The notes under the pieces are model-generated. The model was not told the DNA's origin and ran no database searches. It saw nothing but the letters and a program-made list of their open reading frames with translations. Source: Candidatus Anstonellales archaeon (lineage in GTDB: Archaea > Micrarchaeota > Micrarchaeia > Anstonellales > J096). Taken from it: 64,000 nucleotides of DNA. The position numbers and the translations under genes are program-made. Positions 11,213 to 28,598 of the stretch are shown piece by piece. Positions within the stretch are counted from its first letter, which is position 1. Every line of letters starts with the position of its first letter. The stretch spans positions 92,809 to 156,808 of the forward strand of contig JAWAFD010000001.1 in NCBI GenBank assembly GCA_038890745.1, written 5' to 3'.

Positions 11213-12208
11213 TTAATATATATTCTCCCTATTCAGCGGATAGTTTGTAACTATCCTTATGTCATTTACTCGGAGAACACTCTGGCTTATTCTGTTGAAA
11301 CCTATCCCACAACCAGAATGAAGAATCGGCTCTTTCTTTATTAAATTGAGATAGTCAGCAAAATCATCAATACTCTTCCCCCGTTCTTTAAGGATTCTGT
11401 ACATCGGGCTGTTTAGCAATCTCTCAACAAGCCTTTCATAGTTGTTCTCCCTTTCAGCAGAACCAACACTTTCACCACTAAAAGGCATTATCAAATCAGC
11501 GCTGTTCACTATACGGTCATCCTCTTCATTTACCCGCATGTTGAAGAATTTTATCTCCTTTGGGTAGTGTGTGATGAAAAGGGGCCTGCCGCCGAGGGCA
11601 TCAACCAAAAACAACTCATGCTTAGATTTTAAGTCATCCCCCCAGTTTATGTTAAAATCCGGCTTTAAAATCTCGATCGCTTCTGTGTATGTAATCCTGT
11701 TGAATTTTTTTGTGTATTCAAAAACATAGCCGGCATCAATCCCAAGAGAATTAAAATCTTCTTCGTTATTTTTTAGTGCATTCCGTATCATGTTCTTTAC
11801 TAGTTCTTCTATGTGAAAAAGAAGGGACTCAAAATCACCAACGTGCTCAAATTCAAGGAGCGTGAACTGGTTCAGATGCCTTCCATCAACCTCTTGCTCT
11901 GCCCTTGAACTTGTGATCACTGTCCAAACCTTTTTGTGTGATGGAATCTTTGCCTCTAGATAAAGCTGGCCTGTCTGCGCCAAGTATGCCTCCACACCAA
12001 AATGGTCAACGGCATAAAGGGTGTTTACATTCTCACACGCACCTGTTATTTTAGTAAGCGTTGGCACCTCAACCCAACAAAAACCATTCTTTATAAAGTA
12101 CCCGACTGCTCCAGTATACAGGCTGCTGTTTATCCTATCTATACATGCCATCTCTTCAGAATTTATTATCTCGAATCTATTTTTAGTTTCAACAAGCTGC
12201 CCCAACAT
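11213..12208 (-). CDS. AsnRS-like protein lacking the anticodon-binding domain (archaeal-type asparagine synthetase A)
   Basis: Class II motifs YLAQTGQLYLE, SRAE..RHLNQF, GESVGSAERE, GCGIGFNR; 331 aa with no OB domain. Confidence 0.8.
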   Translation of the reverse strand: MLGQLVETKNRFEIINSEEMACIDRINSSLYTGAVGYFIKNGFCWVEVPTLTKITGACENVNTLYAVDHFGVEAYLAQTGQLYLEAKIPSHKKVWTVITSSRAEQEVDGRHLNQFTLLEFEHVGDFESLLFHIEELVKNMIRNALKNNEEDFNSLGIDAGYVFEYTKKFNRITYTEAIEILKPDFNINWGDDLKSKHELFLVDALGGRPLFITHYPKEIKFFNMRVNEEDDRIVNSADLIMPFSGESVGSAERENNYERLVERLLNSPMYRILKERGKSIDDFADYLNLIKKEPILHSGCGIGFNRISQSVLRVNDIRIVTNYPLNRENIY

Positions 12209-12251
12209 CCAACCACCCCTTTCCCTAGCCGCTTATGATATATTTAAAAAT

Positions 12252-12275
12252 TTGTTGTAAAAATATTTACAACAA
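12252..12275. promoter_or_regulatory. Inverted repeat TTGTTGTAAA-N4-TTTACAACAA, probable TrmB-family operator
   Basis: Perfect 10-bp arms between the TATA-like TATTTAAA and the ATG of the regulator. Confidence 0.65.
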
Positions 12276-12276
12276 T

Positions 12277-12999
12277 ATGAAAGTAGAAGAAGTTTTGCAG
12301 AATTGCGGGCTCTCAAAAAATGAGGCAAAGATATACCTCGCCCTTCTTCAACTAGGCTCATCAAAAGCAGGAAAGATCTCAAAGCTGGCGCAGATAGACA
12401 GAACATCTACCTACAACTCGCTTAAGCTTCTAATAGAGAAAGGACTCGCAAGCTATGTGATTGTGGGGAAGGTTAGATGGTTTCAGCCGGCTTCTCCTGA
12501 AAAACTCCTTATACTCACTGATGAAAAAAGAGAAGGGTTAATGAAGGTCATGCCATTTTTGAATGCAGAGTATAAAGAAAAAAAACTTGAGGAGAATGTA
12601 AGGCTTTTTAAAGGATTGAGGGGGATAAGGACCGTTCTTGAAGATATCCTAAACGAAGGAAAACCAAACCTTGTTTTCGGGTCTGAGGGCCAGCTTGAAA
12701 AAAACATGCCTGCCTTTGCCCAAAGGTTTGTGCATATGCTGAAAAAAAGAAAAATAAAGGTAAAAAGTTTGGTGAGGGAAGGAAGGCGGGATGTTTCCTC
12801 AAAAACAGCAGAGGTAAGATTCGTTCCGAAAACAGTAAAATCAAATGTTGTTACGAATATTTACGGAAACAAAATTGCAATAGTGATATGGAGCAAGACA
12901 CCAGAAGCGATACTGATAGAAAACAAAACAGCCGCTGAAGCATACAGAAGCTATTTCTGGTTTATGTGGGAGAGGGCGAAAAGGAAACATGCCCATTAG
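12277..12999 (+). CDS. TrmB-family transcriptional regulator
   Basis: GLSKNEAKIYLALLQLG..RTSTYNSLKLLIEKGL wHTH; C-terminal IYGNKIAI..AEAYRSYFWFMW. Confidence 0.9.
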   Translation: MKVEEVLQNCGLSKNEAKIYLALLQLGSSKAGKISKLAQIDRTSTYNSLKLLIEKGLASYVIVGKVRWFQPASPEKLLILTDEKREGLMKVMPFLNAEYKEKKLEENVRLFKGLRGIRTVLEDILNEGKPNLVFGSEGQLEKNMPAFAQRFVHMLKKRKIKVKSLVREGRRDVSSKTAEVRFVPKTVKSNVVTNIYGNKIAIVIWSKTPEAILIENKTAAEAYRSYFWFMWERAKRKHAH

Positions 13000-13002
13000 T
13001 AT

Positions 13003-13058
13003 TTTTGTTGCCATATGGAAACAAAAATATAGCAATTTTATTTCCATTTGGAAACAAA
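13003..13058. repeat. Palindromic direct repeat A, copy downstream of the ATPase gene
   Basis: Two TTTRTTKCCA-NN-TGGAAACAAA boxes. A 25-bp core (13034-13058) is identical to 14314-14338. Abuts the ATPase stop codon. Confidence 0.85.
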
Positions 13059-14252
13059 TTAAAAAAGAAGACCGAAAATGTAGAGTGGGATTTCATCAGA
13101 TGCAACAGAAAGCGACTCTTTTACAATAAAAGACCACCCACTCCCACTGAGCTGGGAAGCACTTTTGCTTCTTCCCCCTATTTCAAAAATATACCCATCC
13201 ACATAATAATCTGGCACCTTTTTACCAGTTTCTCTGATGTACTGTGCATGCCCTACGTGATGGATGAAAAAGTCTTCTCTCAATGCCCCTTTTTCTATGG
13301 AAACTCCAAAATACTCCCCAAGAGAATTTCTGATGGAAAGCGGGAGCATAACCTTACTCTCTCCCAGTATAGATTTATGCCCACTACCGTGCGGGGGGAG
13401 TAATGTAATCAATCCACTTATGGAGAGTAAGCGCATGAGCTCTATTGTGAACTTTACTGAGCGGCCAATAGAGTTTGCAACCGAATTGTAGCTTATTTCT
13501 CCTGGTTTTGAGGATGCTATAAACTTTAGAAGCCTAAATGCACTATCTATATACCCAGTGTCTATACTTTTTAGGGAAAGAAGATCATGGTACACAACCC
13601 GCTCTATTATTCCTGGGTAAACGTCCTTTCCTTCAAAAAAAGCAGCAGGTAGACCGTAATGGTTGACAAACTCAGGATACAAACTAATGAATGGAGCCAC
13701 CTCCCTTGAAACCTCTACCCGTTCTTCAATAAGTTCCTTTATCGTTCTTTTTCTAAGCAGTGTTTTAGTTTTGAAATAGATATATTCCCGAAATGAAAAT
13801 GGCCTTAGCTCGCTTATACATATTCTCCTTGCTAAGTCCGAGGAGCGTGCAGCGATATCAATTGCAGAGGAACCGGTAATGATGATCTTTGTTCTGCTCT
13901 CATCATAGAAAAGTTTTATATCTTTAGGCCATTCTTTTATGACCTGTATCTCATCTATGCCAAAAGTAGTAAATCCCTGGGTGTATGCATATGAAAGGGT
14001 TTCGTAGAGATCATAACCATGCTTGAGAAGGAACTCTGCATTTATGTACATAGCTTTTTCATATTTCTTTAATATGTGTATGAGCAACGAGGATTTGCCG
14101 ACCCCCCTAAGCCCCTTTATCGCCGAGATAATTTTTTGTTTTTTTATGCTCTCTTCTAACTCCTGCGATGCAGGCCTGAGCACATCCACTGCCTTTTCCC
14201 TACAAACTTTTTCTGAGTAAGATAGGAGTCTCGTGAAATCGTTTTCGTCCAT
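13059..14252 (-). CDS. AAA+ ATPase (AAA_14/DUF4143-like) with wHTH and a C-terminal PD-(D/E)xK-like module
   Basis: Walker A GLRGVGKS, Walker B IDEIQ, ITGSSA, PFSFREY, PDYYV..FEIGG. Confidence 0.88.
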   Translation of the reverse strand: MDENDFTRLLSYSEKVCREKAVDVLRPASQELEESIKKQKIISAIKGLRGVGKSSLLIHILKKYEKAMYINAEFLLKHGYDLYETLSYAYTQGFTTFGIDEIQVIKEWPKDIKLFYDESRTKIIITGSSAIDIAARSSDLARRICISELRPFSFREYIYFKTKTLLRKRTIKELIEERVEVSREVAPFISLYPEFVNHYGLPAAFFEGKDVYPGIIERVVYHDLLSLKSIDTGYIDSAFRLLKFIASSKPGEISYNSVANSIGRSVKFTIELMRLLSISGLITLLPPHGSGHKSILGESKVMLPLSIRNSLGEYFGVSIEKGALREDFFIHHVGHAQYIRETGKKVPDYYVDGYIFEIGGRSKSASQLSGSGWSFIVKESLSVASDEIPLYIFGLLF

Positions 14253-14283
14253 ATAAAAATAATGGGCATTCTGCTTATAAATC

Positions 14284-14338
14284 TTTTGTTTTCTCTAGGA
14301 AATAAAAAACTTAAATTTTATTTCCATTTGGAAACAAA
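14284..14338. repeat. Palindromic direct repeat A, copy upstream of the ATPase TATA box
   Basis: Aligns with 13003-13058 and is adjacent to the TATA (minus-strand TTTATAAG, 14274-14281). Confidence 0.85.
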
Positions 14339-14353
14339 ATCCTGCAAGATGGC

Positions 14354-16735
14354 TCATACCTCCCAGTATTTTCTTGTTTTCAAAAATGTTTTTTGTGCCT
14401 CTATTAGATCAACCCAAAAACCAAACTCATCCTTATGTAGCCTTCTCAATATTCTATCTGCTGTTTTTGCGCCGACACCAAAAACAGTTAAAGCAATGAT
14501 CGCTTTTTTTCCATATGCACGTGTAAGGTTTGCGCGATATTCTAACTCTTCTTTGTCTGCTTTTTCTGAATAAAGGGTCAGAGGAGAACCGCACCTGTGG
14601 CATTTTGGCATTTCCTCAACCCTTAGGATCGTTGTAAATCTTGTCGCCCCGCAATTGACGCAAATAAGTTTTACATCCTGGCTTTCAACAGCATTTTTGA
14701 ACGCCTCTATCCTTGCGCTCTCTGGTAAAAACTCAATAGGAAGAGGCCTGGAGAACCTATCAACAATTTTTATATCTGGAACAAAATCAAAATTAAAATC
14801 AAAATACCTTTTTGCTTCTTTCACTGCCTCCTCATAAACAATCGACCCTTTAAAGAATTTTGCAAGCCTCGGGTTGAATGGCGTGTCCTCTTTCAAAATA
14901 CCAAACCTTCTTGCAACATGCGTGAATTTTATGGAAAAGATAAAGCTATCCTCTATTGATTTTTCTGCGAGAGCCCGGATGTTGTATTTCTTTATTTTAT
15001 GGATGTGCTCGCCAAGAGGAAAGGGAAGCTTTAGAATTATTCTATAAGCATCAGAAATTCCGTTTGCTTGCTCACCTGTAAGTTCCTCCACTGCTTTTTT
15101 TAAACCGGCCAGGATTGCGTTATTTGCGATCGTTCCTTGACAGGAGTAGTATACCAGGATATCTTCCTTCTCTTCTCCAAAAAGCTCTTTACACACTGTT
15201 TGGGCAACTTCTTTACTTACAGGAAGGTCTTCCCCTTTCCATACCGGAACGGTTAGGGCGGCTGAAGAGAGAGGGATTACCTTTATTTCTTCCTCTAAGC
15301 TCGCTACCTGCCACGGTCTTCCTTTTAATATGAATGAATCACCCTCGGATAGTTGGGATGCAAATTTTTCATCTACATGTCCGATTATTGTTCCGGTTTG
15401 AGCTTCTCTGACTGAAAAATATATCTCTTTTGGAATGGTTGAAACATTGTCAAAGTAGTACTTTTTTCCCTTTAAAGTGGCTTTTATTGTTCCATCCTCA
15501 TTTAAAAAAATTACATTATTTTCTTCTAAAAATTGTGCAATAATTTTACTTTTTTCAAATGAAAGAGTATAGATGTGCGATTTCTTGAGAATTTCATGAA
15601 CCTTAGTGAAGGGTATTTTTGAAAAAGCAAGCCCAACTATTTGATGGGCTATAACATCGAGCGGGGAGGTATATTCCTTTTCTTCTTCTATCCACCCTTC
15701 CCTTGCTTTTTTTATTATTCCCTCGCTTTCCTTCCTTTCCTCTTCATTCCTTGCGATTATTATTGCCCTTGAAACCTGCCTTAGGGAATGGCCGCTCCTT
15801 CCCATTCTTTGCAGGAATCTACTCACTTGTCTGGGCGAGCCGATCTGTACTACAAGGTCAACATCCCCTATATCTATTCCTAGTTCAAGGGAAGAGGTTG
15901 CGACAATGGCCTTTAACTCGCCCTTCTTAAACTTTCTTTCAGCCTCTTCTCTAATCTTTCTGGAGAGAGAGCCGTGATGAACAAAAGCAAAATCAGAGAA
16001 TAACGAACCGTAAAGCTCTGCCTCGCTTCTTGTGTTCACAAAAATCATTATTTTCTGTTTTTCTGCGAGCGATCGGACAAATTCTTTTATTTTTTCATCC
16101 CCGTATATTGGCTTTACCTCTGCTTTCCACTCTTTCTCCCCTCCTGAAACAACATCGTAATTTTTTCCGTTGAATATCAACTCTGCTTTTTTTGGGGAGG
16201 AGAGGGTTGCGCTAAGGCCGATGGTTTTGAAGTCTGCAAGCTCAGAAAGCCTGGCAAGCCCAAGGGATAGCTGGCTCCCCCTTTTACTGTCAACAAGCTC
16301 ATGTATCTCATCCACTATAACCCATCCAACATTCCTCAGATGCTCCTTGAATTGTGGAAGAACAAGAAGAATTTGAAGGGTTTCTGGGGTTGTTATGAGC
16401 ACATGTGGCGGGGATTTTGCCTGTTTTGTCTTTATTTTTGCCGGCGTGTCCCCATGCCTAACCTCTATTCTTATTCCGGCAGCATTCCCCCAATAAATAA
16501 GCCTTTCTTCCATATCTCTATTCAGGGCTCTTAATGGGGTTATGTACAGTGCTGAAATGGGTTGCTTCTTTTGGATTGCTATTTGCTCAAAAACAGGCAG
16601 AACCGCGGCCTCTGTTTTTCCTGCTCCTGTAGGTGCTACGATTAAAACATTCCTTCCACTAAGAATAAGCGGGATGGCTTTTTTTTGTACCTCTGTTGGC
16701 TCTTTAAATCTCTCAAGGAATGCTTTTTCTAACAT
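14354..16735 (-). CDS. lhr: Lhr-family DEAD/DEAH helicase with C-terminal Zn ribbon
   Basis: PTEVQ, APTGAGKT, DEIHEL..KRG, LSAT, TSSLELGIDIG, QRMGRSGH, CxxC...CxxC, GVGAKTA. Confidence 0.9.
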   Translation of the reverse strand: MLEKAFLERFKEPTEVQKKAIPLILSGRNVLIVAPTGAGKTEAAVLPVFEQIAIQKKQPISALYITPLRALNRDMEERLIYWGNAAGIRIEVRHGDTPAKIKTKQAKSPPHVLITTPETLQILLVLPQFKEHLRNVGWVIVDEIHELVDSKRGSQLSLGLARLSELADFKTIGLSATLSSPKKAELIFNGKNYDVVSGGEKEWKAEVKPIYGDEKIKEFVRSLAEKQKIMIFVNTRSEAELYGSLFSDFAFVHHGSLSRKIREEAERKFKKGELKAIVATSSLELGIDIGDVDLVVQIGSPRQVSRFLQRMGRSGHSLRQVSRAIIIARNEEERKESEGIIKKAREGWIEEEKEYTSPLDVIAHQIVGLAFSKIPFTKVHEILKKSHIYTLSFEKSKIIAQFLEENNVIFLNEDGTIKATLKGKKYYFDNVSTIPKEIYFSVREAQTGTIIGHVDEKFASQLSEGDSFILKGRPWQVASLEEEIKVIPLSSAALTVPVWKGEDLPVSKEVAQTVCKELFGEEKEDILVYYSCQGTIANNAILAGLKKAVEELTGEQANGISDAYRIILKLPFPLGEHIHKIKKYNIRALAEKSIEDSFIFSIKFTHVARRFGILKEDTPFNPRLAKFFKGSIVYEEAVKEAKRYFDFNFDFVPDIKIVDRFSRPLPIEFLPESARIEAFKNAVESQDVKLICVNCGATRFTTILRVEEMPKCHRCGSPLTLYSEKADKEELEYRANLTRAYGKKAIIALTVFGVGAKTADRILRRLHKDEFGFWVDLIEAQKTFLKTRKYWEV

Positions 16736-16751
16736 AAAAATAAAAAATAAA

Positions 16752-17417
16752 TTATGAGAGAAGCCTCTCTATTGTTCTTTGCTTCTTTTTTGCAATTGTT
16801 GAGATCGTATCCTTCAGCCCAAGCCCTAACGCAAGCCCTGCACCAATAGCAAACGCGATTGCAAACGCCCCGAGCACGATCATGAATGCGTCCTTAAGCA
16901 GGCTTGTATCTGCGGATGGCATGAGCGCAGGAAGGGAAAGGACAACACCATTGTAAACTATGAATACCTCAACAACAATCGCCAATGCATTCGCAAACAT
17001 AACCTTACTCTTGTTTATCCTGTTTGCTATGTAGTCAGCTACAAAAAGGGTTGCGATAAGGAGGATTATTCCCTGCACAGCACTGTGTATGTATCCCAGA
17101 GCACCAAACCCCCACATCTCAAGGGCCGGTACACCGGAAACATCCCCAGCTATCGTCAGTGCAAGCAGGTATATGTAAAGTTTGATGAGTAGGACAACAA
17201 TACCGGTTAGCGTGAAACCAAGTAAGGCATTCTCAAGACCGGCATCTTTTATTCTTTTTTCTACTCTTAGGTTCTCAGAAATTTTCCATACTACCCCTGA
17301 GAATATTCTCTCAACAATCCATGCAACTATAAAAACGAGTAGAATTTTCAGCGCAGCAAAAAATCCGTCCAAAAGCCCAGGCACAACGACATCATACACA
17401 AGTGTTGTCCAATCCAT
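16752..17417 (-). CDS. Multi-pass membrane protein (MscS TM/CmpX-like)
   Basis: About 5 hydrophobic helices; AFAIAFAIGAGLALGLG..KD. Confidence 0.65.
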   Translation of the reverse strand: MDWTTLVYDVVVPGLLDGFFAALKILLVFIVAWIVERIFSGVVWKISENLRVEKRIKDAGLENALLGFTLTGIVVLLIKLYIYLLALTIAGDVSGVPALEMWGFGALGYIHSAVQGIILLIATLFVADYIANRINKSKVMFANALAIVVEVFIVYNGVVLSLPALMPSADTSLLKDAFMIVLGAFAIAFAIGAGLALGLGLKDTISTIAKKKQRTIERLLS

Positions 17418-17455
17418 ATCACCACCGGAATAAAGATGAAAAGAAAGGTTAATAA

Positions 17456-18583
17456 TTATTGTGTTTGGTTCGAGGCAGGGCTTTCAGTAAATGATGCGAT
17501 GCAATCCTGCGAAAGGCTTTTGTTTTCTATCAAGCCGCACATGGTCTGGTTTTTTGTACTGAGCGCTATGGTGTAGAAGCAGTCGTCTTTCATCGGGGGC
17601 TCAAACTTTTCGCAGAGCGCAGGGTCAAATGTGAATGAAACATATCCTGAATAGCATGCTGTTTTGTTCTCAGCGTATTCGCACATGCTCGACATGCGGT
17701 TGTGCACAGCAACAGTAAGGATGCATTTATCTTTTTTATTGGATTGCAAGCATGTAAAGTACTCATCAAATATATTGTAGTGGCGCTGGAATAAATACGA
17801 GAGGCTTGTAAATTCAGTTGGGATGGGCGGAATGTTTGAGGTTTCGTAGTTTGAGTCGACAACCACAAACCCTTCTTCTATGTATTGGCCCGAATAATAG
17901 TAGGAAAACTGCTTTGAGAGCGTCTCCCCGGTTTCTGCTATGCATGAAGTAATGTTTTGTGTTTTTACGATCGAGACGAGCGGGTCTGATGGAGAAAGCC
18001 CAATGGGTTCAAGATCGTTTATGGAGAGTTTTGTGTAATCAACGCTGTATCTAATCAATGTGCATCGTCTTCCATTGATTTCGCTTTCTTCCACAGAATG
18101 CATACTCAACCCACCTCTTTTCTCAAGGAGTTCTAATCTTTTTTTCTCTTTTTCTGCCCTCTCATCAGAAAAAAGCGCTTTCTTGAATCCATCAACTATG
18201 AGCATTTCGTTTGTTTCGTTTGCAATGTCACAGTATCTTTCTCCAGAAAAATCAAAGCAAAGTATTTTCTGGTTCGGTATAACAAAAACCTCCCTTGAAA
18301 TCCCCATTATTGTCTCTTTTATGTAAGCGTTCTCGTTATCCTGTGTTATGAAAAATGTTTTCTCAACATCACCAGATTTTTCCTTGACTGTGAATTGGTA
18401 TGTTGTTTTTCCTTTCATGAACTCAGCTGACTTGAGAAGAAGCTCAAGGTTTTTGTCTGTTTCTGTTTTGTTCTCCTCTTTATGCTCCGGGACTAGAGGC
18501 ATGACTATGTTGTAGACAGCAAAACCAGCAATTAGGATAAACAAAACTACAGCCAATACAATTAACAATTCATTTTTTTTCAT
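17456..18583 (-). CDS. Membrane-anchored exported protein with C-terminal Cys repeats
   Basis: N-terminal TM helix; repeated C-x(~11)-C units (KDKCIL..MCEY..ACY..LCEK..DDCFY..MCGL..QDC). Confidence 0.75.
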   Translation of the reverse strand: MKKNELLIVLAVVLFILIAGFAVYNIVMPLVPEHKEENKTETDKNLELLLKSAEFMKGKTTYQFTVKEKSGDVEKTFFITQDNENAYIKETIMGISREVFVIPNQKILCFDFSGERYCDIANETNEMLIVDGFKKALFSDERAEKEKKRLELLEKRGGLSMHSVEESEINGRRCTLIRYSVDYTKLSINDLEPIGLSPSDPLVSIVKTQNITSCIAETGETLSKQFSYYYSGQYIEEGFVVVDSNYETSNIPPIPTEFTSLSYLFQRHYNIFDEYFTCLQSNKKDKCILTVAVHNRMSSMCEYAENKTACYSGYVSFTFDPALCEKFEPPMKDDCFYTIALSTKNQTMCGLIENKSLSQDCIASFTESPASNQTQ

Positions 18584-18616
18584 AGAATCACCATAGAAAA
18601 GAAAAAGGCCTAAGAA

Positions 18617-18769
18617 CTACCCGCAGCATGTGCATTTCTTTTTACCGGCCTTTTTCTTTTTTGTTTCTTTCTTTTTTGCCATATGTTCAACCTCCATGAG
18701 CGTATCTGGTTCTGGTTTTAACGATTTTTCTTCTTTTCTTCTAAAAATCTTTTTTATAAAATCAAGCAC
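18617..18769 (-). CDS. Small basic protein ending CTCCG (50 aa from GTG, or 21 aa from ATG 18682)
   Basis: MLDFIKKIFRR...MAKKKETKKKKAGKKKCTCCG*. GGAGGT SD before the internal ATG. Not in the ORF track. Confidence 0.5.
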   Translation of the reverse strand: MLDFIKKIFRRKEEKSLKPEPDTLMEVEHMAKKKETKKKKAGKKKCTCCG

Positions 18770-18851
18770 TCCCAAACAAACCCCTGAAATAATTGGGCGG
18801 TTAGGTTTTTAAATATTTATATTCATTCGAGCGCTCTCTCCTCAAATTAAT

Positions 18852-20180
18852 TTATAAAAACTTCTCCATGTCCTTTAAATCAAAAAGCAGAATGCCAGGT
18901 TCTTTGAATTTTTCTTTAAAGCTTTTTGCGAATATAACATAGGTTTGTTTTTTACTTGGCCAATCAACGCACCTTGCCTTCTCCTTCAACTCGGTAAAAA
19001 TAATCCTCGCATTAACCCGTTCCTGCCACTTGCACTCTGCAAAAAGGATCTCTCGTGTCCGCTCATTTAACCCAACGATATCTATCTCTTTGTCTTTATG
19101 CCACCACTTTCCAATCTTTGTTAGATTAAACATTCTCATTTCCAATAGGAAGTCCTTACACACATCCTCAAAAGATTTGCTGGTATATGTGTTGAGCTCC
19201 TGTTTAACTAAATTTAAAACTTCTTTCTGTAAGCCCTGTTCCAGCATAGATCTGTTTTTGAAAATAAATTTGAACCAAAACTTGTAGAAATTATCCTTGA
19301 TTTTGTATCTGGTTGTTTTTGCTTTTAGTTTCTTTTCAGTTACCGGGATCTCCTTTTCTATGAGACCTACTCTTTCCAAAATCAACAAGTATTTTGGTAA
19401 TTTATAAGTTTGGATTTTACTGAATCCAGCTATTTCAGCAAATTTTACATACCCATTTGTTATAGCTGAAAGTATGGAGGCGTAGGGTGCAGGGGCCCTA
19501 AACTCTTCAAACAGAAGATTGAATGGTTCGTGGTATAAAAAAGAGGTTCTATCCAAGATCTTCCTTTTAATATTCTCCTCAATACTTAATTTTGAGTCGA
19601 ATTCTTCCAGGTATCTAGGAATCCCACCTAAGATTGAGTAAACTTCACCAAGCTGCTTAGCGTTGTACCCTGGAAAAAAGTCTTTTATGAACTTAAATCT
19701 TAGCGGTAGGATATGCATTTCTGCAGTCTTTCTGCCATAGAGAGGAGAACCATAACCCATCGCAATCTTGTATATCGTTGAGATTATCGAACCGCAAAGA
19801 ATTATTTTTTTGTCAGTCTCCTTTATCTTTTCCTACCATCTCTGTGCTATCGTAGGCCAGGCTTTATTGACCTGGTACAAATACTGGAACTCATCAATAA
19901 TTATGACCTTGTGCTTACTCCTATAAAGAAACTCAAAAAAATCATCCCAAGTGTTGAATCTTACAAATTCTCCTCTTATTTGATCTGAAAGAACATCTAG
20001 TATGTTTTCTGATACATCCGCCAGCAGATAGAGCGCACCTGTTTTTTTAGCAAATTCAACCAAGAGTCTACTTTTTCCAACCCTACGCCTACCATAAAGC
20101 AAAACAAGCTCAGCCTTCTTTGATGTCGCAAGCTCTAGCAACCTACCAAGCTCTTCCTCCCTATCAATAAACATTATCAT
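18852..20180 (-). pseudogene. Archaeal ATPase (ATPase_2 + DUF234) interrupted by an in-frame TAG at 19833-19835
   Basis: FIDREEEL, YGRRRVGKS, IIDEFQY, QRW*EKIK..IILCGS, SPLYGR, GGIPRYL, EIDIV..FAECKW. Both halves are in the same frame. Confidence 0.85.
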
Positions 20181-20249
20181 AATAATCATTATCGTAATCC
20201 TGTTTTTAAAACTTTGGGTTTGGGCCCCTCGCATAAAAGACTCTTTCTA

Positions 20250-20609
20250 CTATGACCTGTTATTGTATCCAAAAGCAACACCGACCGGTCTGGCATTAAA
20301 AAAAGCAATGTAATACTCACCGATTACGCGATTTTTCATTTTTATTTTCTTGTTTTTGATAATTTTTCTCGCCTCCTCTTCTGAAATATTGATCCTGTTT
20401 TTTGTAGCCAGATGACCAAATGTTCTTGCGAAAGAATGTGTTGGTTTGTTTGTGTAAACCAAAATCCCGCGCCTACCTTTGATGTCTATTGACATTAATG
20501 ATTTTGAAAACGCCCTTATCCCTTCTTTCTTTTCCTCAAAAACAATGTTTTTTGGAAAAACGATTCCGAATTTTTCATAAACAAATTTTTTGAATTCATT
20601 TACTCGCAC
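20250..20609 (-). CDS. NIP7/RsmF-C-terminal-like partner protein (paralog of 7719-8126)
   Basis: NEFKKFVYEKFGI, KPTHSFARTFGHLATKNRI. Confidence 0.7.
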   Translation of the reverse strand: MRVNEFKKFVYEKFGIVFPKNIVFEEKKEGIRAFSKSLMSIDIKGRRGILVYTNKPTHSFARTFGHLATKNRINISEEEARKIIKNKKIKMKNRVIGEYYIAFFNARPVGVAFGYNNRS

Positions 20610-21475
20610 CTGATCACCTTTGCAATAAAAAACCCCTCGCTTTTAAGATGCCAGGGGTATACCCTCCATACCTTCCTAAACTCATTCCCAAACTCGCTCA
20701 AACCTGTTTCATGAGGAATTTCATAAGGAATGTTGATTGTTTCTAACCTTGCATTCTCCCTTCTTTCCAGCAAAAATCTAATAACCTCTTCATTTTCTTC
20801 TTTTGTATAGGTGCAGGTAGAATACACAAGAACCCCGCCAGGTTTAAGGGAGTCAAAAGAAGAGAGCAAAATCTGTTTTTGCAAACCAGAAATTTTTAAA
20901 CTATCCTTAACCTGCCATTTTGCGTAAGCATATGGAGAAGAGCCCAGACCAGAGCATGGTGCATCAACCAAAACAAAATCAAAATACCCTGGCTTCAAAA
21001 GTTTTGTTCCGCTTCTTTGCGTTATTATTGTATTCAGTACCCCAAGCCGGTTTATATTATTTACAAGCGCGCTTATCCTCTCGATCCTCACATCGTTTGC
21101 ATAAATAATCCCGGTATTCTTCATCATCGCAGCCATCTGGGTTGTTTTTGAGCCTGGCGCTGCGCAAACATCATAAACCTTAGAGCCAGGTCTAGGGTTC
21201 AAAACGACGGGCGGAAGCATGGACCCTAAACTCTGAGTATGTATGTATCCTAAAAAATACTCTATCGTGTTCCCAAGCTTTATGTTTTCATCAAAAACAT
21301 AGAAAGCATTCTCAAAAACAGCCCTTTCCAATTTCAACCGGCTGAATTCCAAAAATTCATACACGTTTGTTTTTATTTCATTCACCCGGATTGTTGGTTT
21401 TATGTTGAGCAAAAATTCATTTGCATCCTCTCTTGTAAAGCCCGAAAGCCAACCTTTGTATTCAGAATATTCCAT
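20600..21475 (-). CDS. RsmB/NOP2/NSUN RNA m5C methyltransferase (paralog 2)
   Basis: IRVNEIK, VYDVCAAPGSKTTQ, VLVDAPCSG, VYSTCT; start at MEYSEY. Confidence 0.92.
   Translation of the reverse strand: MEYSEYKGWLSGFTREDANEFLLNIKPTIRVNEIKTNVYEFLEFSRLKLERAVFENAFYVFDENIKLGNTIEYFLGYIHTQSLGSMLPPVVLNPRPGSKVYDVCAAPGSKTTQMAAMMKNTGIIYANDVRIERISALVNNINRLGVLNTIITQRSGTKLLKPGYFDFVLVDAPCSGLGSSPYAYAKWQVKDSLKISGLQKQILLSSFDSLKPGGVLVYSTCTYTKEENEEVIRFLLERRENARLETINIPYEIPHETGLSEFGNEFRKVWRVYPWHLKSEGFFIAKVIRCE
20614..20868 (-). repeat. 255-bp inverted repeat, copy 2 (partner 7458-7712)
   Basis: Reverse complement matches 7458-7712 with 5 mismatches. Confidence 0.95.
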
Positions 21476-21526
21476 AAGAATAGAATAAAAACAAAAAATT
21501 AAAAACAATCTGTAGCATGTTCTTTT

Positions 21527-21904
21527 ATGAAAGAGTTTTTTGTTCAAACAAAAAAACAGGTTGAGGCAATCGATATAACGCACGAAATAGAGGCAAGAAT
21601 AGAAAAGAATGCAAAAGCATGTTTGGTTTTTGTCCCGCACGCAACCGCGGCTATAATACTAAATGAGTATGAACCAAACATAAAAAGCGACTACGAGAAA
21701 TTCTATTCCGAGCTTGCGAAGGGGGATTGGAGGCATAACTCCATAGACAATAACGCAGAGGCTCATCTCCTCTCCTCGCTCGTGAAGCCATTCGCGCTAA
21801 TTCCATGCGAAAACGGAAAACTTATGCTCGGAACATGGCAGAGGGTTATGCTTCTTGAGTTAGATGGGCCGAGAAGAAGAAAGATTACACTAACCACGCT
21901 GTAG
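21527..21904 (+). CDS. yjbQ: YjbQ/UPF0047 family protein
   Basis: VPHATAAIILNE, HNSIDNNAEAH, LGTWQRVMLLELDGPR. Confidence 0.92.
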   Translation: MKEFFVQTKKQVEAIDITHEIEARIEKNAKACLVFVPHATAAIILNEYEPNIKSDYEKFYSELAKGDWRHNSIDNNAEAHLLSSLVKPFALIPCENGKLMLGTWQRVMLLELDGPRRRKITLTTL

Positions 21905-21907
21905 GTC

Positions 21908-22861
21908 CTAATATCTTTCTATTCCATAGTTGGTTAGTTTGTGGTATTTCCCGTTGTTTAGGTATATCAGGGACAGCTCGGTAGAGATTTCAACAAAAAA
22001 ATTTTCATACACAATAGGTGAGGCGATATCTTTCAACGTTATCAATGCTTCCTGTAAATCGTTGTTTTTCACAATTTCCTCTATAAACCACTTTCTATGT
22101 TGCGTGGTCGTGAATACATCCCTCAAGCTAAAAATTATTGAGCTGTTCGCAAAATTTTTTATGCAAACAGGAGAAAAGATAAAGTTGTATGATTGAATTC
22201 CCGCGCTGGTTAAAAAAATATATTTACCCTGTCTGTTTAGAAGGAAAAGAAAAGGAAAGAGAGCAGAGAGATGTTCCTCACTCAAAAATCTAACTATGCT
22301 ATCTTTCTGCTCTGTATATGTTTTTGCTATGTTTTCTAAACTTGATTCAAGCAAAAACCTGAATTCATAGAGATACCCGACATTTTCTGTATGCCTATTT
22401 ATTAAATGGACAAAAAGAGGGGAGAGGCCAAGAAGGCTTGTGGGATAATCCTCATCAACTGAGAATTTCCCATCTTTTAGTCCCATCCCTAGCGGGAAAT
22501 TAAGAATAAAACTACTTATCTTTAGTGGATAAGCAGCCCTTTCTGCTTTTTTGCTGAACTTCTCAGCAACCGAAAGTATCTCATCCTCATCTGCCTCAAA
22601 AATATTTGAGTTAAAGATGTATATTTTTTCAAGCAAACCTACTCTCTCTTCATTAGTTAAGTTAGGTAAATGGTAGTAGGCTATGAGAGAGGAAAGGATA
22701 TGCTCCTTTATCCTTTTTTCCAATGGCTCCTCCTCCAAAATATAAGAGAGATTCGCTAAATAGTGCCATTTATTTCTATCAGGGATAACATGAGAAATTG
22801 ATCTGCTTATAATACCATCCACTCTTGCTTTATTTAGTGCTCTAAGCATGGTTAAGCCCAT
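21908..22861 (-). CDS. Hypothetical protein
   Basis: 317-aa ORF; no motif recognised. Confidence 0.65.
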   Translation of the reverse strand: MGLTMLRALNKARVDGIISRSISHVIPDRNKWHYLANLSYILEEEPLEKRIKEHILSSLIAYYHLPNLTNEERVGLLEKIYIFNSNIFEADEDEILSVAEKFSKKAERAAYPLKISSFILNFPLGMGLKDGKFSVDEDYPTSLLGLSPLFVHLINRHTENVGYLYEFRFLLESSLENIAKTYTEQKDSIVRFLSEEHLSALFPFLFLLNRQGKYIFLTSAGIQSYNFIFSPVCIKNFANSSIIFSLRDVFTTTQHRKWFIEEIVKNNDLQEALITLKDIASPIVYENFFVEISTELSLIYLNNGKYHKLTNYGIERY

Positions 22862-22915
22862 GGTTATAATTTATATACTATAAAGGTTTTTATTCTTTGC
22901 TTCTCTATTCTACCC

Positions 22916-23212
22916 ATGGGACCATCAGAAAGGCTTAAGCGCCACTTAACATCAGAAAACCTTTGGTTATATATTCTGAGTTTAGCAAGCAAAAAACCAG
23001 TGTACGCATATGCGATGAGAAAGGAGATAAAAAGGTTTGGGTTTGAGCCTAGTTTAGTTATGCTTTACTTGGTTCTTCCTAGATTGGAGCTGGCGGGGTA
23101 CATAAGAAGTGAAATGAGAGGAAGGAGGAAGTACTATATTATAACGAAAAAGGGGAAGGAAGAGCTTGAAAAAGGAAAAAGCGAGATGCGAAGGGTTTTG
23201 GGCCTATTGTAA
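22916..23212 (+). CDS. PadR-family transcriptional regulator
   Basis: LYILSL..PVYAYAM..LYLVLPRLELAGYI..RKYYIITKKG. Confidence 0.88.
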   Translation: MGPSERLKRHLTSENLWLYILSLASKKPVYAYAMRKEIKRFGFEPSLVMLYLVLPRLELAGYIRSEMRGRRKYYIITKKGKEELEKGKSEMRRVLGLL

Positions 23213-23224
23213 CTATGGTTACAT
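23208..23224. promoter_or_regulatory. Palindrome TGTAACTATGGTTACAT, candidate operator upstream of nreA
   Basis: 16/17 identical to 3638-3654. Overlaps the padR stop codon and precedes the nreA TATA-like TTTTAA. Confidence 0.55.
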
Positions 23225-23277
23225 CTGTCCCCAGGCCTGCAAACCTATTTTAACCCCTTCAAATAAACTATTCTCAT

Positions 23278-24444
23278 ATGGTCAAGCCCAATGTTAGCAT
23301 GGAGGAGCATAGAAGATGGCTCCGCTCCTCTCATCTATTGGAAAAACTTTCCATAAATTTTGATGAGATAGAGAAAAAGCTTGGTGAGAGAATTTTTGGC
23401 CCGAGCATTGATTTTTTTGTTGGTTCTACCGGCTGGCCTAATATAAATGCCGGTCCTCTCATCTCATTGGGCGAAGCAACAGAAACAAAACATTTATTTG
23501 GTATGGGATATGAAGGGATCATAGCTTCCCGGTTGGCTACAACAAGAGGAAAAAAATTTACTTCTGTTTACTCCCCAAGAATTACAGAAAGCATGAAGGA
23601 AATAGCGATGAGCATAAAACCCATAGATGTTGAGGCGCATTTCTCAAAAAAACCATTCTTTGAACTTCATCTTTCGCCAATCGTTCAACCAATGGGTCCT
23701 TCAGCCCCACTAAAAATGCTGATAGAAGCAGAAAACCCAATAATTCCAAGAAAGGTTTATTCGCTTTATGAAGAAAAAATAAAAGCGATAGATGCTATCT
23801 CTGAGCTTCTTTCTCATGGATTTGACAACTATTACATTTCAAAAATTCTTTCAGCCGGGGTTTTGGGTGAGGAAAAGCGCCTTGTTCCTACGCGGTGGAG
23901 CATAACAGCGAGCGATGATATGATCGGAAAAATCCTCATAAATAAAATAAAAGAGTATAAAGAAAACAACGAAATCCTTGTTTTTACAAGCTATTACCTG
24001 TTCAATCAGTTTGTTATCCTTCTCCTTCCCGGAAGATGGGAGTTTGAGAATTTTGAAGCCTGGGCTCCAAAAACAAGCTGTGGCTTGAACCAAAAAGAGT
24101 ACACAATACTAGAGGAATACGAGGGGTGGAGGGGAAGATGGAGATATGCAGAGCAGGCAGGCGGATATTATGCCTCCCGGCTCGCTGTTTTAGAATACTT
24201 AAACAAAATGAAAATGCAAAGCAGGGTTGTTGTTTTTCGGGAAGTTTATGAAGGTTTTTATCTACCTGTTGGCGTTTGGCAGGTAAGGGAAAACGTAAGA
24301 AACGCGCTTAAACAAAAACCAAAAAAATTCTCAACAATAAATGAAGCGCTCGAAGAAATTAAAAAATACCTTCGCCTTTCATTACAAGAGTACAGAAAAA
24401 GGAGCAGGATTTTAGGGCAGCTTGGGCTTAAAGATTTTTTTTAA
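23278..24444 (+). CDS. nreA: Nre-family archaeal DNA repair protein with PIP box
   Basis: FVGSTGWPNI..GP, RLVPTRWSITASDD, GGYYASRL, PVGVWQVRENVR; C-terminal QLGLKDFF. Confidence 0.9.
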   Translation: MVKPNVSMEEHRRWLRSSHLLEKLSINFDEIEKKLGERIFGPSIDFFVGSTGWPNINAGPLISLGEATETKHLFGMGYEGIIASRLATTRGKKFTSVYSPRITESMKEIAMSIKPIDVEAHFSKKPFFELHLSPIVQPMGPSAPLKMLIEAENPIIPRKVYSLYEEKIKAIDAISELLSHGFDNYYISKILSAGVLGEEKRLVPTRWSITASDDMIGKILINKIKEYKENNEILVFTSYYLFNQFVILLLPGRWEFENFEAWAPKTSCGLNQKEYTILEEYEGWRGRWRYAEQAGGYYASRLAVLEYLNKMKMQSRVVVFREVYEGFYLPVGVWQVRENVRNALKQKPKKFSTINEALEEIKKYLRLSLQEYRKRSRILGQLGLKDFF

Positions 24445-25047: not shown

Positions 25048-25098
25048 GACTATTTCAGCAACGCCATCGTTTTTAAACATTTAGTAAGAAACACATCC

Positions 25099-26824: not shown

Positions 26825-26885
26825 GCTTTTTCTATTGCAGAGAATGTTTAAATATCTTGTTCAGAGAAGCAAAAGTGTGGAATGA

Positions 26886-26935
26886 TTCCGCTCTACCGAC
26901 CAAAATCAAATAAAAATGGTCGCTGGAGCGGAATT
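26886..26935. repeat. Palindromic direct repeat B (50 bp), copy overlapping the ATPase stop
   Basis: TTCCGCTCTACCGACCA-N14-TGGTCGCTGGAGCGGAA-TT; identical to 28232-28281. Confidence 0.95.
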
Positions 26936-28199
26936 AAACCGAAAGCGCAAACAAAGGAATGGGGATTCGCTCCTTCGATATTGTTTCATCCATGCTGAGT
27001 GTGAGTATGCCTTCTCTTGATTTCTTTCCTTTCCCTCCAACCTCTATTCGCAGCCCGTTGGCTATAAAATCTACTTCATGGCTGTAGAAAATCGCGCCAG
27101 ATAGCGATAAGAGATGCCGAAATACTGAATCCTCTCTAAGATTTCCTGTTATCTCTGCGCTGCTTACTATGGGTAAAGCAAGGATATACCGCATAGATGG
27201 TGAATAAAAAAACCATTTCTTTGGCTTCTTGAACATCCTACCCCTTCCTTGGTATTCTATCCCTTTGATTATCATCCCATTTTCAAATACCTCAAGCAGC
27301 TTTCCAATACTTTCTTTTGATACACCTACAACTTCAGAAAGGGTAGTCAGCTTAACAGCATCCGCAGGAATGGTTGAAAGATACTTTATCAGCCTCTCTG
27401 CTGCGGTCAGCATCCTTGTTTCAAATTTTTCATATCTGGAAAAATCTTCATATATAGTTCTTTTCACGATTTTATTTATTCCATCAGCATACGCATGCTC
27501 ATCAAGTCTGAGTGCGGCCGGTAGGTCATGGCGCATGTATTCATCATACAGCGCAAGAAGATTATATGGGCCAAGTAAAGAAAGTACTCTCAGGTATTCC
27601 TCATCAAGATTTTTTTTCCCGAGATTTTTCCGTATGCTTTTGGATATCTCATCAGGTATTACTATTCCATATCTAAGCATTAGGTATTCTCTGAAAGAGA
27701 GGGGGTGTACCTGAAGCTCGTATGCCCTTCTGGTTAGCTCTGTTGTTTTTCTGAGCGGAAGGGCGGATGAAGAGGTTGCGATTATAACAAGGTTTGGCCT
27801 TCTATCATGAAGGACTTTAAGGTGGATATCCCATTCAGGAAGATAGGTTATTTCATCCAGGAGGAGTAGAAATTTTTTGCCTAACCCGACCCTCTCCTTT
27901 TTTATATAATCTAACGCTTCGAGAGCATGGTTGAGTGTTATCCCGCGCGATATAAGCTCATCGCATGAAAAATAAGCCTTTTCCCCTGCTGTTTCATTGA
28001 AAAGCTGGTATAACCCCGTAGTCTTTCCTGTACCCCGTAAACCAGTGAGAATAAATACACGTTGCCCGCTTCTCGCAACTGCCGCTCTTAGTTCATTAAC
28101 AAAGCATCTTTTGGACTTCACATTTTTAAGCTCTTCGGCGATTATTTTTGGAGTTTCTGCCAGTGTGTTCAACACAAACCTCTTTATTATTTCGGTCAT
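26934..28199 (-). CDS. AAA+ ATPase (AAA_14/DUF4143-like) with wHTH and PD-(D/E)xK-like tail
   Basis: GLRGTGKT, LLLDEIT, ATSSSA, PLSFREY, EVDFI..IEVGG. Start is ATG 28199 or GTG 28220. Confidence 0.88.
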   Translation of the reverse strand: MTEIIKRFVLNTLAETPKIIAEELKNVKSKRCFVNELRAAVARSGQRVFILTGLRGTGKTTGLYQLFNETAGEKAYFSCDELISRGITLNHALEALDYIKKERVGLGKKFLLLLDEITYLPEWDIHLKVLHDRRPNLVIIATSSSALPLRKTTELTRRAYELQVHPLSFREYLMLRYGIVIPDEISKSIRKNLGKKNLDEEYLRVLSLLGPYNLLALYDEYMRHDLPAALRLDEHAYADGINKIVKRTIYEDFSRYEKFETRMLTAAERLIKYLSTIPADAVKLTTLSEVVGVSKESIGKLLEVFENGMIIKGIEYQGRGRMFKKPKKWFFYSPSMRYILALPIVSSAEITGNLREDSVFRHLLSLSGAIFYSHEVDFIANGLRIEVGGKGKKSREGILTLSMDETISKERIPIPLFALSV

Positions 28200-28231
28200 A
28201 GGAGTATTTTGGAGTACCACCTTTATAAGGT

Positions 28232-28281
28232 TTCCGCTCTACCGACCAAAATCAAATAAAAATGGTCGCTGGAGCGGAATT
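28232..28281. repeat. Palindromic direct repeat B, copy upstream of the ATPase TATA box
   Basis: Identical to 26886-26935; adjacent to the TATA-like CTTATAAAG (minus strand, 28221-28229). Confidence 0.95.
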
Positions 28282-28292
28282 CTCTGGAGAAA

Positions 28293-28574
28293 TTACTGCT
28301 TATTTTTCCATCTTTCATCAATTTTTTTATCATATATAACTAACTCATACCCTCCGTTTTCTTTGCTTATGATCTCTGCTTTAGTATTTCCATAGGTCCT
28401 TTTCTCACCCTCATAAAAAAATATCCTATCAAGCGTTTTCCACTGCGAGCCCTGTGCGTATTTATATCTTACTTCCATTTTAAGCTTCATAGAAAATGCA
28501 ATGGATTCAAGATCCTCTATCTCCTTTTCAGAAATACCATAGGACACCAGCCATCTATTTATTTTGTATTTCAC
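28293..28574 (-). CDS. Hypothetical protein
   Basis: 93-aa ORF filling the gap. Confidence 0.5.
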   Translation of the reverse strand: MKYKINRWLVSYGISEKEIEDLESIAFSMKLKMEVRYKYAQGSQWKTLDRIFFYEGEKRTYGNTKAEIISKENGGYELVIYDKKIDERWKNKQ

Positions 28575-28598
28575 AACCTACTTTTCTCTTACTTGTTT

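Follow-up and report, generated by a model that had tools for sequence, protein, structure and literature searches.

RAYT transposase genes are bracketed by cognate, lineage-specific REP/REPIN palindromes; the RAYTs are HUH enzymes, and REPs occur in tens to hundreds of copies. Integron cassettes carry a single attC site, are usually promoterless and lie in arrays beside the integrase gene, and their attC sites, which directly follow the stop codons, are conserved in structure and not in sequence. Mobile restriction-modification units have been described as recombinase-free and as carrying a nuclease gene between direct repeats of 26-65+ bp (Furuta, Abe and Kobayashi 2010, PMC2853133). Among the ATPase families considered below, DUF4143 is listed among the PD-(D/E)XK families as one whose function is unknown (PMC3424549), while PDC-S01 was put forward by 'guilt-by-embedding' as a single-gene phage-defence candidate that is abundant in Archaea (PMC12988326). 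In the available text of the latter report, COG1373/PDC-S01 genes are some of the most frequent defence candidates of prokaryotes. The literature on DUF4143, AAA_14, COG1373, COG1672, PF01637, PF13173 and PDC-S01, as covered by main texts published mostly outside subscription journals, describes neither flanking repeats nor operators for these genes.

Here we describe a locus in a window of 64,000 nucleotides (the whole stretch of DNA that was analysed) from a Candidatus Anstonellales archaeon, in which a gene with the PDC-S01 label and its flanking sequences form a unit termed cassette A. The host is a tiny hot-spring archaeon with a genome of 0.99 Mb (989,524 bp; G000 below, with G001 and G002 as its congeners). 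The locus comprises the following features:

12235..12999, plus strand: trmB-family regulator gene of the host, left flank, outside cassette A (Pfam TrmB; congener synteny)
13000..14353, minus strand: cassette A, the inserted unit of 1354 bp between the stop codons of trmB and lhr
13059..14252, minus strand: cassette A gene, 397 aa, COG1373 / PADLOC candidate PDC-S01 (Pfam AAA_14, PADLOC)
14275-14282, minus strand: TATA box ATTTATAA of cassette A, 22 nt before the ATG
14354..16735, minus strand: lhr-type helicase gene of the host, right flank, outside cassette A (Pfam DEAD, Helicase_C, WH_Lhr, DEAD_assoc; congener synteny)

We read cassette A, with a probability of roughly 55%, as a compact 1.35-kb mobile or excisable single-gene accessory cassette that has its own promoter and whose flanking repeats are its own operator. 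It is probably a defence-type gene, a candidate role that derives from the database label of a candidate system.

The ATPase gene is the sole ORF of cassette A, and no match to a transposase family was found in the cassette with Pfam. The gene product, protein A (P0001), matches AAA_14 only among Pfam families (77.4 bits against a cut-off of 27; residues 42-157), with no Cdc6_C domain, and is matched by seven PADLOC models of PDC-S01, for which no curated cut-off is given (best E = 7.4e-24, residues 26-334). A sequence search of solved structures returned no match; Foldseek with the AF2 model (pLDDT 92) returned CED-4, Orc1/Cdc6, PAB2304 and SSO1545. Among 80 aligned homologues, the Walker A residue K53 and the Walker B residues D100/E101 are invariant, as are R142, R143, E326, D348 (in the 'PD' motif) and E357, and K363 is conserved at 90% or above. 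Protein A itself has no significant DUF4143 match (E <= 0.01), and 54 of the 80 homologues have one, the best at 1.5e-9; the nuclease assignment is based on these matches and on the conserved residues. Protein A is predicted to have three parts, namely an AAA+ (STAND/Orc-like) ATPase domain, a winged helix and, at its C terminus, a PD-(D/E)xK-like domain. With only 22 nt between the end of the TATA box and the ATG, the leader of the mRNA is probably very short or missing. Six orthologous promoters retain the TATA element, either as TTTATAAA or as TTTAAAAA.

The gene lies between two palindromic units of ~56 bp with two boxes each, one of which adjoins the stop codon and the other the TATA box:

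13001..13025: stop-side second box TTGCCATATGGAAAC, an intact palindrome (93%), 84% identical to the core and reaching the trmB stop codon
13034..13058: stop-side core box of 25 nt, palindrome TTTCCAnnnGGAAA, directly after the stop codon
14284..14307: promoter-side box next to the TATA box, TTTCCTAGAGAAAAC, degenerate in this genome and intact in orthologues
14314..14338: promoter-side core box of 25 nt, the box farther from the TATA box

The initial annotation had reported these as an imperfect repeat with a 25-bp identical core, and so they were found: the core AATTTTATTTCCATTTGGAAACAAA is 100% identical at 13034-13058 and 14314-14338, and the left and right copies of the whole unit agree at 43 of 56 positions. 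The left copy stops one base before the stop codon (13059-13061) and the right copy one base before the TATA box. Genome-wide, the core occurs exactly twice, even when 3 mismatches are allowed, and a reversed control pattern gave no occurrence. A loose 15-mer box pattern (<=3 mismatches) had 10 matches in the window where 6.8 were expected, and thus was not enriched; six of the ten are three good boxes counted on both strands.

A second cassette in the window, previously noted as having the same layout with a different repeat, served for comparison:

26886..28281, minus strand: cassette B, with a 428-aa AAA_14/DUF4143 gene at 26934-28220

Its repeat is a separate, exact direct repeat of 50 nt (26886-26935 and 28232-28281), and its sequence is indeed unrelated to that of repeat A. 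The centres of the two boxes lie 33 bp (left copy) and 32 bp (right copy) apart in cassette A and 32 bp apart in cassette B, in line with the ~32 bp (A) and ~31 bp (B) estimated before. The predicted proteins are 25% identical (E = 1e-21) and share the motifs that had been listed for them (GLRGxGK, SFREY, LRED, ExGG and IP..F.L). Repeats A and B are each present in the genome as one pair only. A dispersed repeat family was considered and rejected, core A being found twice only and the B-type pattern only as pairs and one solo copy.

The repeats might act as nucleic-acid hairpins and not as operators, either as a 3' terminator or stabiliser of the mRNA or as an attC- or REP-like single-strand site for a recombinase encoded elsewhere. 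Each repeat folds into a single long hairpin, with z = -5.6 (-20.2 kcal/mol) for the stop-side copy of A and z = -6.6 (-25.1 kcal/mol) and -5.0 for the two copies of B; the stop-side copy belongs to the 3' untranslated region and has T-runs, and the position after a stop codon and the primacy of structure over sequence recall the integron attC sites. Covariation beyond the palindrome was, however, not significant, since a score of 0.115 against 0.100 for shuffled alignments was reached in 90 of 500 shuffles, and covariation cannot tell a hairpin from a protein-binding site. The box centres are unpaired in 9/10 and 5/10 of the alignment rows. Moreover, with its place upstream of the TATA box, the promoter-side copy is probably not transcribed from the cassette's own promoter, the repeats have no Rfam match, and their sequence differs from cassette to cassette, so that a single trans-acting recombinase would need to tolerate them all. 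We consider the hairpin explanation quite improbable. A known RNA family was likewise rejected, an Rfam search of window positions 12000-29000 having returned only one chance sRNA match far below the cut-off.

Orthologues of protein A provide the evidence that the boxes belong to the gene. The proteins of L017, L019 (identical to L021) and L022 are 70-79% identical to protein A, and in each of their genes one pair of boxes precedes the TATA box and another immediately follows the stop codon. At L018 and L004, only the promoter copy is kept. The neighbours differ at every locus (tRNA and DUF72, a beta-helix protein, an ABC ATPase and a rhomboid protein, and others), and across these five contexts the orthologous cassettes share no sequence past the outer edges of the repeats. 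At L017, ARAGORN found no tRNA, and Rfam reported an intron-containing tRNA that ends at the cassette edge. In 10 copies of the repeat the half-sites TTTCC and GG.AA are invariant, and the box centres and spacers vary. Because the orthologues keep the boxes in the same two places in other surroundings, the boxes belong to the gene, with which they travel, and not to its target. A strict two-box A pattern matched in only three of 81 genomes (G000, G004 and G058), beside or paired around A-type genes, and a control pattern gave 1 match.

The predicted recognition helix of the winged helix (residues ~259-276) ranks with the best-conserved segments within the clade that shares the A boxes, with an identity of 0.81-0.84 against 0.64 for the overall sequence, and with the more divergent segments in comparison with the next clade (0.34-0.39, against 0.44 overall). 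Given their position and conservation, we infer that the boxes are a putative operator for the protein's own winged helix.

Two other binders had been proposed: Orc1/Cdc6, for which the boxes would be ORB-like sites of a replication origin, and the neighbouring TrmB. The box has TTCC...GGAA like the Pyrococcus mini-ORB TTCCAGTGGAACT, and the Thermococcales cdc6 gene lies between two ORB clusters (PMC1904270, available text). The fold of protein A resembles Orc1/Cdc6, and trmB adjoins cassette A. The likeness, however, is confined to a short TTCC/GGAA palindrome with another spacing, TTCC-N5-GGAA being one base longer than the mini-ORB. The A box is found only at the cassette A gene, and at least eight cassettes with unrelated boxes occur in this ~1-Mb genome. 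The sole Cdc6_C gene (C1:165.9-167.1 kb, ~59 kb away; a single PF09079 match in the genome, at C1:165856-166155) has no such boxes within 1.5 kb, and neither the congeners nor a sister strain have the cassette. The cumulative GC skew of contig C1, which is noisy and shows nothing at cassette A, is uninformative. A replication origin at cassette A was accordingly rejected, on the uniqueness of the box, its spacing and the distant, box-less orc1. TrmB as the binder cannot account for the layout, since orthologues without a trmB gene next to them are flanked by the same boxes, and congeners that have trmB lack the boxes. Taken together, these two proposals are very improbable.

The layout of cassette A proved to be a property of the family, as had been suggested from cassettes A and B. 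Among 272 ORFs of 300-500 aa in G000, used as a control set in which the longest exact flank-to-flank match was recorded, 264 had matches of 7-13 nt; the remaining eight had flank repeats of 23-54 nt, and all eight are ATPase genes with AAA_14 matches. In each of these eight cassettes the repeat is exactly the segment at the stop-to-TATA junction, and each has its own repeat sequence. The repeat layout was also found at 21 of 34 homologous loci in relatives (~60%; 4/10, 14/20 and 3/4 distinct orthologue loci), and in every family promoter examined a palindrome particular to the gene sits at the TATA box. The cassettes are scattered singly among other genes of G000. The nuclease, in contrast to what the initial annotation had assumed, is not a common part of them: three repeat-flanked cassettes in G000 encode ATPase_2 and a winged helix without a nuclease domain. 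One of this type, at C2:218601, is missing from its syntenic site in congeners. For the cassettes at C2:191776 and C5:10325/11672, the congener contigs end or are rearranged at the corresponding sites.

Comparison of the trmB-lhr region in relatives, another check that had been proposed, shows that cassette A is an insertion or indel. In both G001 and G002, trmB (88-89% aa identity) directly adjoins lhr (82-83%), with no ATPase gene and no box between them; the gap between their stop codons is 6 nt in G001 and ~90-110 nt in G002. Cassette B is also absent from its syntenic site in both congeners, and no box is present there. A different gene-less allele was found in the sister strain of run X4. 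There, contig record 11 (5094 nt, depth 10), with flanks 93-97% identical to the window, joins position 13033 to 14314, so that 1280 nt are skipped and 25 letters fit both sides, and the cassette A gene has no cover. Strain X4 thus carries a precise deletion between the two repeat copies that has left one solo repeat, although this solo repeat could in principle also be a pre-insertion site. In run X2, a joint of 14392 to 14900 (sides of 21 nt) was taken as an unrelated contig.

The repeats are, however, not needed for gain or loss. All four repeat-less AAA_14 paralogues examined are absent from the syntenic sites in the congeners; as these are gained and lost equally, the repeats do not explain the gain. 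That the cassettes are mobile or excisable, and that repeat-less paralogues are equally variable, are two points that go beyond the initial annotation.

These alleles bear on the question as to whether the repeats could have arisen through host processes without any action of the protein, by Campbell-type integration of a circle at a resident solo copy or by 'insertion with long target duplication' as in restriction-modification genes, in which case the boxes would simply be the duplicated segment. The X4 allele, with one repeat at an empty site, is the arrangement used to define that class (PMC2853133, available text). Three wHTH-nucleotidyltransferase cassettes in G000 also have flanking repeats, and in the one with a readable empty site the 32-nt repeat corresponds to the end of a host gene and occurs once in G001; since this repeat derives from the target, a host route to long flanking repeats exists in this genome. 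Furthermore, one intergenic site shows three states in three species: in G001 a solo B-type palindrome directly follows a stop codon, the same site holds a full B-like cassette in G002, and a different cassette occupies it in G000. Against this explanation, the flanking repeat is single-copy in the gene-less allele of X4 but not in those of G001 and G002, where neither the A site nor the B site has a box. Orthologues in unrelated contexts have the same boxes at their flanks and as part of their promoters, and for this reason the duplicated segment belongs to the element; moreover, the repeats begin and end where the operator does in 8/8 cassettes. A purely host-driven origin of the repeats therefore appears doubtful to us.

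The opposite possibility is a self-moving element, in which the ATPase-winged-helix-nuclease protein would bind the boxes at both ends and cut at the box edges. The ends of A and B, direct repeats that are also 71% self-complementary, can be read as inverted repeats too, the boxes being palindromic. A possible route would be staggered, cos-like cuts on a circle or concatemer, followed by fill-in, with the resulting terminally redundant operator-gene-operator copy being joined to a new site. Several features are in keeping with such a process. The homology of orthologous A cassettes in the five contexts stops at the outer repeat edges, and a B-like cassette elsewhere in G002 is homologous to cassette B from repeat to repeat. 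A repeat that equals the stop-to-TATA junction, as in all eight cassettes, would be expected if the intermediate were a circle or joined head to tail. The two copies in a genome usually resemble each other more closely (88-98% in L017, L019 and L022; 100% in B) than do copies taken from separate genomes (mean 70%), the PD-(D/E)xK residues are conserved, and the empty sites of A and B are without a repeat.

However, the ATPase_2-type cassettes are flanked by repeats without having a nuclease domain, and repeat-less paralogues are inserted and lost as often. No target-site duplication is readable for A or B, whose empty sites are ~20% diverged, and cassette B has 27 and 17 nt of extra filler beyond its repeats. 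With each repeat occurring only twice in the genome, there are no recent transposed copies. Finally, no circle or tandem joint was present among the assembled contigs of four runs, which is weak evidence as contigs drop rare forms. A self-moving element is, on balance, unlikely, if worth keeping in mind.

We return, therefore, to the reading of cassette A as an accessory gene framed by its own operator. The operator at the TATA box would allow autoregulation of the gene, and the stop-side copy would be a duplicate of the operator, with looping or the insulation of tightly packed neighbours as possible roles. Since the two copies are direct repeats, they would make the gene excisable. Gain at new sites would occur by host recombination or repair, with no encoded transposase; this is suggested by the repeat-less paralogues that come and go and by the nuclease-less versions that carry repeats. 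On another, more speculative reading, to which we attach little confidence, each cassette would be a novel minimal selfish element composed of an Orc/STAND-like ATPase and a winged helix, often with a PD-(D/E)xK nuclease, with the operator palindrome as both of its ends. The protein would recognise these private ends, the element would cycle between an integrated, terminally redundant operator-gene-operator form and a single-operator circle, and the pairing of protein and ends would be lineage-specific.

The locus and its relatives reveal a private promoter palindrome for each gene, and many genes have it again downstream of the stop codon. Between species of one genus entire cassettes come and go, and one natural strain has a repeat-to-repeat deletion. 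In genomes of ~1 Mb with at least 13 such genes, these account for a considerable part of the DNA, and one that changes fast. Should the proteins recognise their own ends, the family would be a set of orthogonal protein-DNA pairs and might represent gene movement that is free of a transposase.

The cassettes can be compared with RAYT genes in that a single gene is bracketed by palindromes specific to the gene lineage; in contrast to REPs, the cassette repeat occurs only as a pair or a solo remnant, and the protein is a predicted ATPase-nuclease. With integron cassettes they share an imperfect palindrome of ~50-60 nt after the stop codon, structure over sequence and the single gene, whereas the ATPase cassettes have a palindrome on both sides and their own TATA box, and lie singly among housekeeping genes. 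Orc1/Cdc6 likewise combines AAA+ and a winged helix in a similar fold, and a TTCC/GAA palindromic core is found in both sites (Matsunaga et al. 2007, PMC1904270, available text). Cassette A, however, has neither the cluster of sites nor the AT-rich unwinding region; it is dispensable and strain-variable, and has many paralogues with unrelated boxes. In domain order and length, COG1373 / AAA_14 + DUF4143 (PDC-S01) is the same as predicted for protein A; the available text of the PDC-S01 report mentions neither flanking repeats nor promoter palindromes nor mobility (PMC12988326). Mobile restriction-modification units resemble the cassettes in forming indels between related genomes and in allelic substitution at one site, and their repeat is described as target DNA that is present once in the empty genome (PMC2853133, available text). 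The repeat of cassette A, in contrast, is the element's promoter palindrome, shared with orthologues and absent from the empty sites of two congeners.

The repeat that the initial annotation had reported around the ATPase gene of cassette A was confirmed, with an identical 25-nt core and with box centres separated by 32-33 bp; cassette B, which holds an AAA_14/DUF4143 gene in the same window, has a like spacing. The components of cassette A, in window coordinates, are the following.

13001-13025: second box of repeat A, stop side; intact
13034-13058: 25-nt core of repeat A, stop side; identical to 14314-14338
13059-14252, minus strand: sole ORF of the region 13000-14353; 397 aa (P0001)
14284-14307: second box of repeat A, promoter side; degenerate
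14314-14338: 25-nt core of repeat A, promoter side; identical to 13034-13058

Each box is palindromic by itself (TTTCCAnnnGGAAA), and its likeness to the ORB core, pointed out earlier, is superficial. Over its full length, the unit is the same in the two copies at 43 of 56 positions. The first copy begins right after the stop codon and the other finishes right before the TATA box; the core has no further occurrence in the genome. Separately, a 10-nt inverted repeat (ATGCCCATTA / TAATGGGCAT, at 12989-12998 and 14258-14267) has one arm in the altered 3' end of trmB and the other in the ATPase gene's 5' leader region, and the TrmB C-terminus in the window is unlike that of either congener (G001 and G002).

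The flanking-repeat layout is specific to these ATPase genes. The source genome has 13 ORFs of 401-440 aa with a strong AAA_14 match; five of them, including A and B, lie between exact direct repeats (25-54 nt). Repeats of 23-39 nt likewise flank three ATPase genes that encode 350-360 aa. When every ORF of 300-500 aa in this genome (n=272) was scored identically as a control, the longest flank-to-flank match was 7-13 nt in 264, and the only eight to exceed this were the repeat-flanked ATPase genes. The three shorter proteins combine ATPase_2 (PF01637) with an MCM_C-like winged helix and have no nuclease domain, and the nuclease that had been proposed as part of the common layout is therefore not essential to it. 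Each cassette has a private repeat sequence with inverted boxes inside it. In all eight, the copy on the stop side touches the stop codon or runs into it, and the copy on the promoter side extends as far as the TATA box, so that in a circular or head-to-tail form the repeat would be the exact segment from gene end to promoter. Each repeat can also be folded into one long hairpin, and covariation analysis did not tell a hairpin from a protein-binding site. Exact flanking repeats of at least 19 nt were found at 4/10 loci of relatives (the locus in the window and the truncated L007 are not counted), at 14/20 further loci of relatives, where two more are marginal (13 and 16 nt), and at three of four distinct loci of close orthologues. 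A gene-specific palindrome at the TATA box is also present in family members devoid of flanking repeats.

Orthologues of A (L017, L018, L019, which equals L021, and L022) are 70-79% identical, and their neighbours differ among loci. L017, L019 and L022 carry both boxes twice, upstream of the TATA box and behind the stop codon, and the promoter copy alone is retained in L018 and in L004, a 59% orthologue. Over ten copies the half-sites are invariant, with variable box centres and inter-box spacer, and no similarity was found past the outer repeat edges among the orthologous A cassettes compared. Identity between the copies in one genome is 88-98% for L017, L019 and L022 and 77% for the window, against a mean of 70% between genomes. 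Furthermore, among 81 genomes searched, the strict two-box A pattern matched in only three (the source genome, G004 and G058), in each case adjoining or pairing around A-type genes, and a control pattern gave one match. Judged from these sequences, the boxes come with the gene. The proposal of cognate protein-site pairs thus gains comparative support from gene-specific boxes that travel with orthologues, short of proof. TrmB, previously considered as a box binder, is a bystander, since the same boxes occur at orthologues with other neighbours. Two local arrangements were also observed: a tandem pair of A-type two-box units, 138 nt apart (G004:C21:13279-13324 and 13417-13462), lies upstream of the 59% orthologue, which has no stop-side copy, and the upstream repeat of the L017 cassette starts at the 3' end of an intron-containing tRNA of 116 nt (L017:2795-2910; detected by Rfam, missed by ARAGORN).

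The synteny check suggested earlier showed that trmB adjoins lhr in both congeners, which have neither the ATPase gene nor a box there. Cassette B is absent from the syntenic site of both as well (14-19 nt versus 1444 nt). A B-like cassette, similar to B from repeat to repeat, sits elsewhere in G002, between the same gene pair that flanks an ATPase_2-type cassette in the source genome; at that site G001 has only a solo B-type palindrome of ~43 nt directly after the stop codon (G001:C11:9339-9381; L053/L055), and no cognate ATPase with this repeat was found in the G001 genome (82% complete). In sequencing run X4, position 13033 is linked directly to 14314 by a 5094-nt contig whose strain shows 93-97% identity in the flanks; across the 25-nt core, this contig leaves out exactly 1280 nt. 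Gene A has no cover in X4. Since Logan contigs are assembled from 31-mers, this join should not arise from the 25-nt repeat alone. Because orthologues show that the boxes arrive with the gene, we take the solo copies to be footprints left by deletion between the repeats.

All seven ATPase loci with a resolvable syntenic site are indels (two other loci lie outside this count). The four repeat-less AAA_14 paralogues tested are absent from syntenic sites of G001 and/or G002, with 1-226 nt in place of 1.37-2.5 kb; as these are gained or lost too, repeats are not needed for gain or loss. One repeat-less AAA_14 gene (L061, G000:C1:75268-76581) is inserted exactly between one stop codon and the next start codon, where the flanking genes overlap in G001 (ATGA); a 9-nt GAAGGGGAT at both junctions is within chance expectation.

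Long repeats derived from the target also arise in the source genome. Three two-gene cassettes of ~1 kb, all outside the window, are bounded by exact direct repeats of 28-32 nt.

G000:C5:84005-85072: wHTH-nucleotidyltransferase cassette
G000:C4:2274-3253: wHTH-nucleotidyltransferase cassette
G000:C5:51347-52338: wHTH-nucleotidyltransferase cassette

Besides a wHTH-nucleotidyltransferase gene of 174-189 aa, each has a second, small ORF: 63-69 aa in one cassette and 141-145 aa in the other two. In two cassettes the repeat starts at or immediately past the stop codon of the last gene; in the remaining one, the last ORF continues through the repeat. The C5:84005 repeat, the only one so checked, constitutes the end of a host gene, with a single copy in G001, which by sequence makes this cassette one of the target-duplication type. 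Elsewhere, a 302-aa ORF (window 18852-19760, minus strand) matches DUF234 and retains no more than the tail of an ATPase_2 domain; together with an AAA_14 match just upstream that contains an in-frame TAG (G000:C1:112500-112919; region to ~20100), it appears to be a broken COG1672-type ATPase gene. A CRISPR-like array (G000:C3:~34400-35500, outside the window) has a ~37-nt repeat (ATTGAACATGTTTACTCTATGTAAAGAGGACTGAGAC) with a period of ~75-80 nt.

The best-supported reading is that cassette A is a single-gene, probably defence-type cassette with its own putative operator at both ends. Recombinase-free insertion would account for its gain, and recombination between its two repeats for its loss; a bolder and less likely reading is that the ATPase protein processes its own cassette ends. 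A literature search on these ATPase families found no account of the flanking-repeat layout. The source archaeon has a genome of 0.99 Mb, and the sequencing runs containing window DNA are hot-spring metagenomes.

Across an alignment of 80 homologues, the Walker A lysine, Walker B D100/E101, R142/R143 and a C-terminal E326...D348 ('PD')...E357 pattern are invariant, and K363 is kept in at least 90%. Within the A clade, the predicted recognition helix (residues 259-276) equals the Walker A motif in conservation, and against the next clade it falls below average. Such a pattern fits a specificity determinant but is weak evidence for one, because shared descent predicts it as well. The only Pfam match of P0001 is AAA_14 (77.4 bits versus a cut-off of 27); DUF4143 is matched by 54 of the 80 aligned homologues and not by P0001 itself. 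In PADLOC, P0001 matches PDC-S01 (E = 7e-24). Its confident AlphaFold model (pLDDT 92) comprises an ATPase, a helical region, a helix-turn-helix with wing (~232-302) and a C-terminal alpha/beta domain, and is matched by Foldseek to CED-4, archaeal Orc1/Cdc6, PAB2304, SSO1545, DnaA and MuB.
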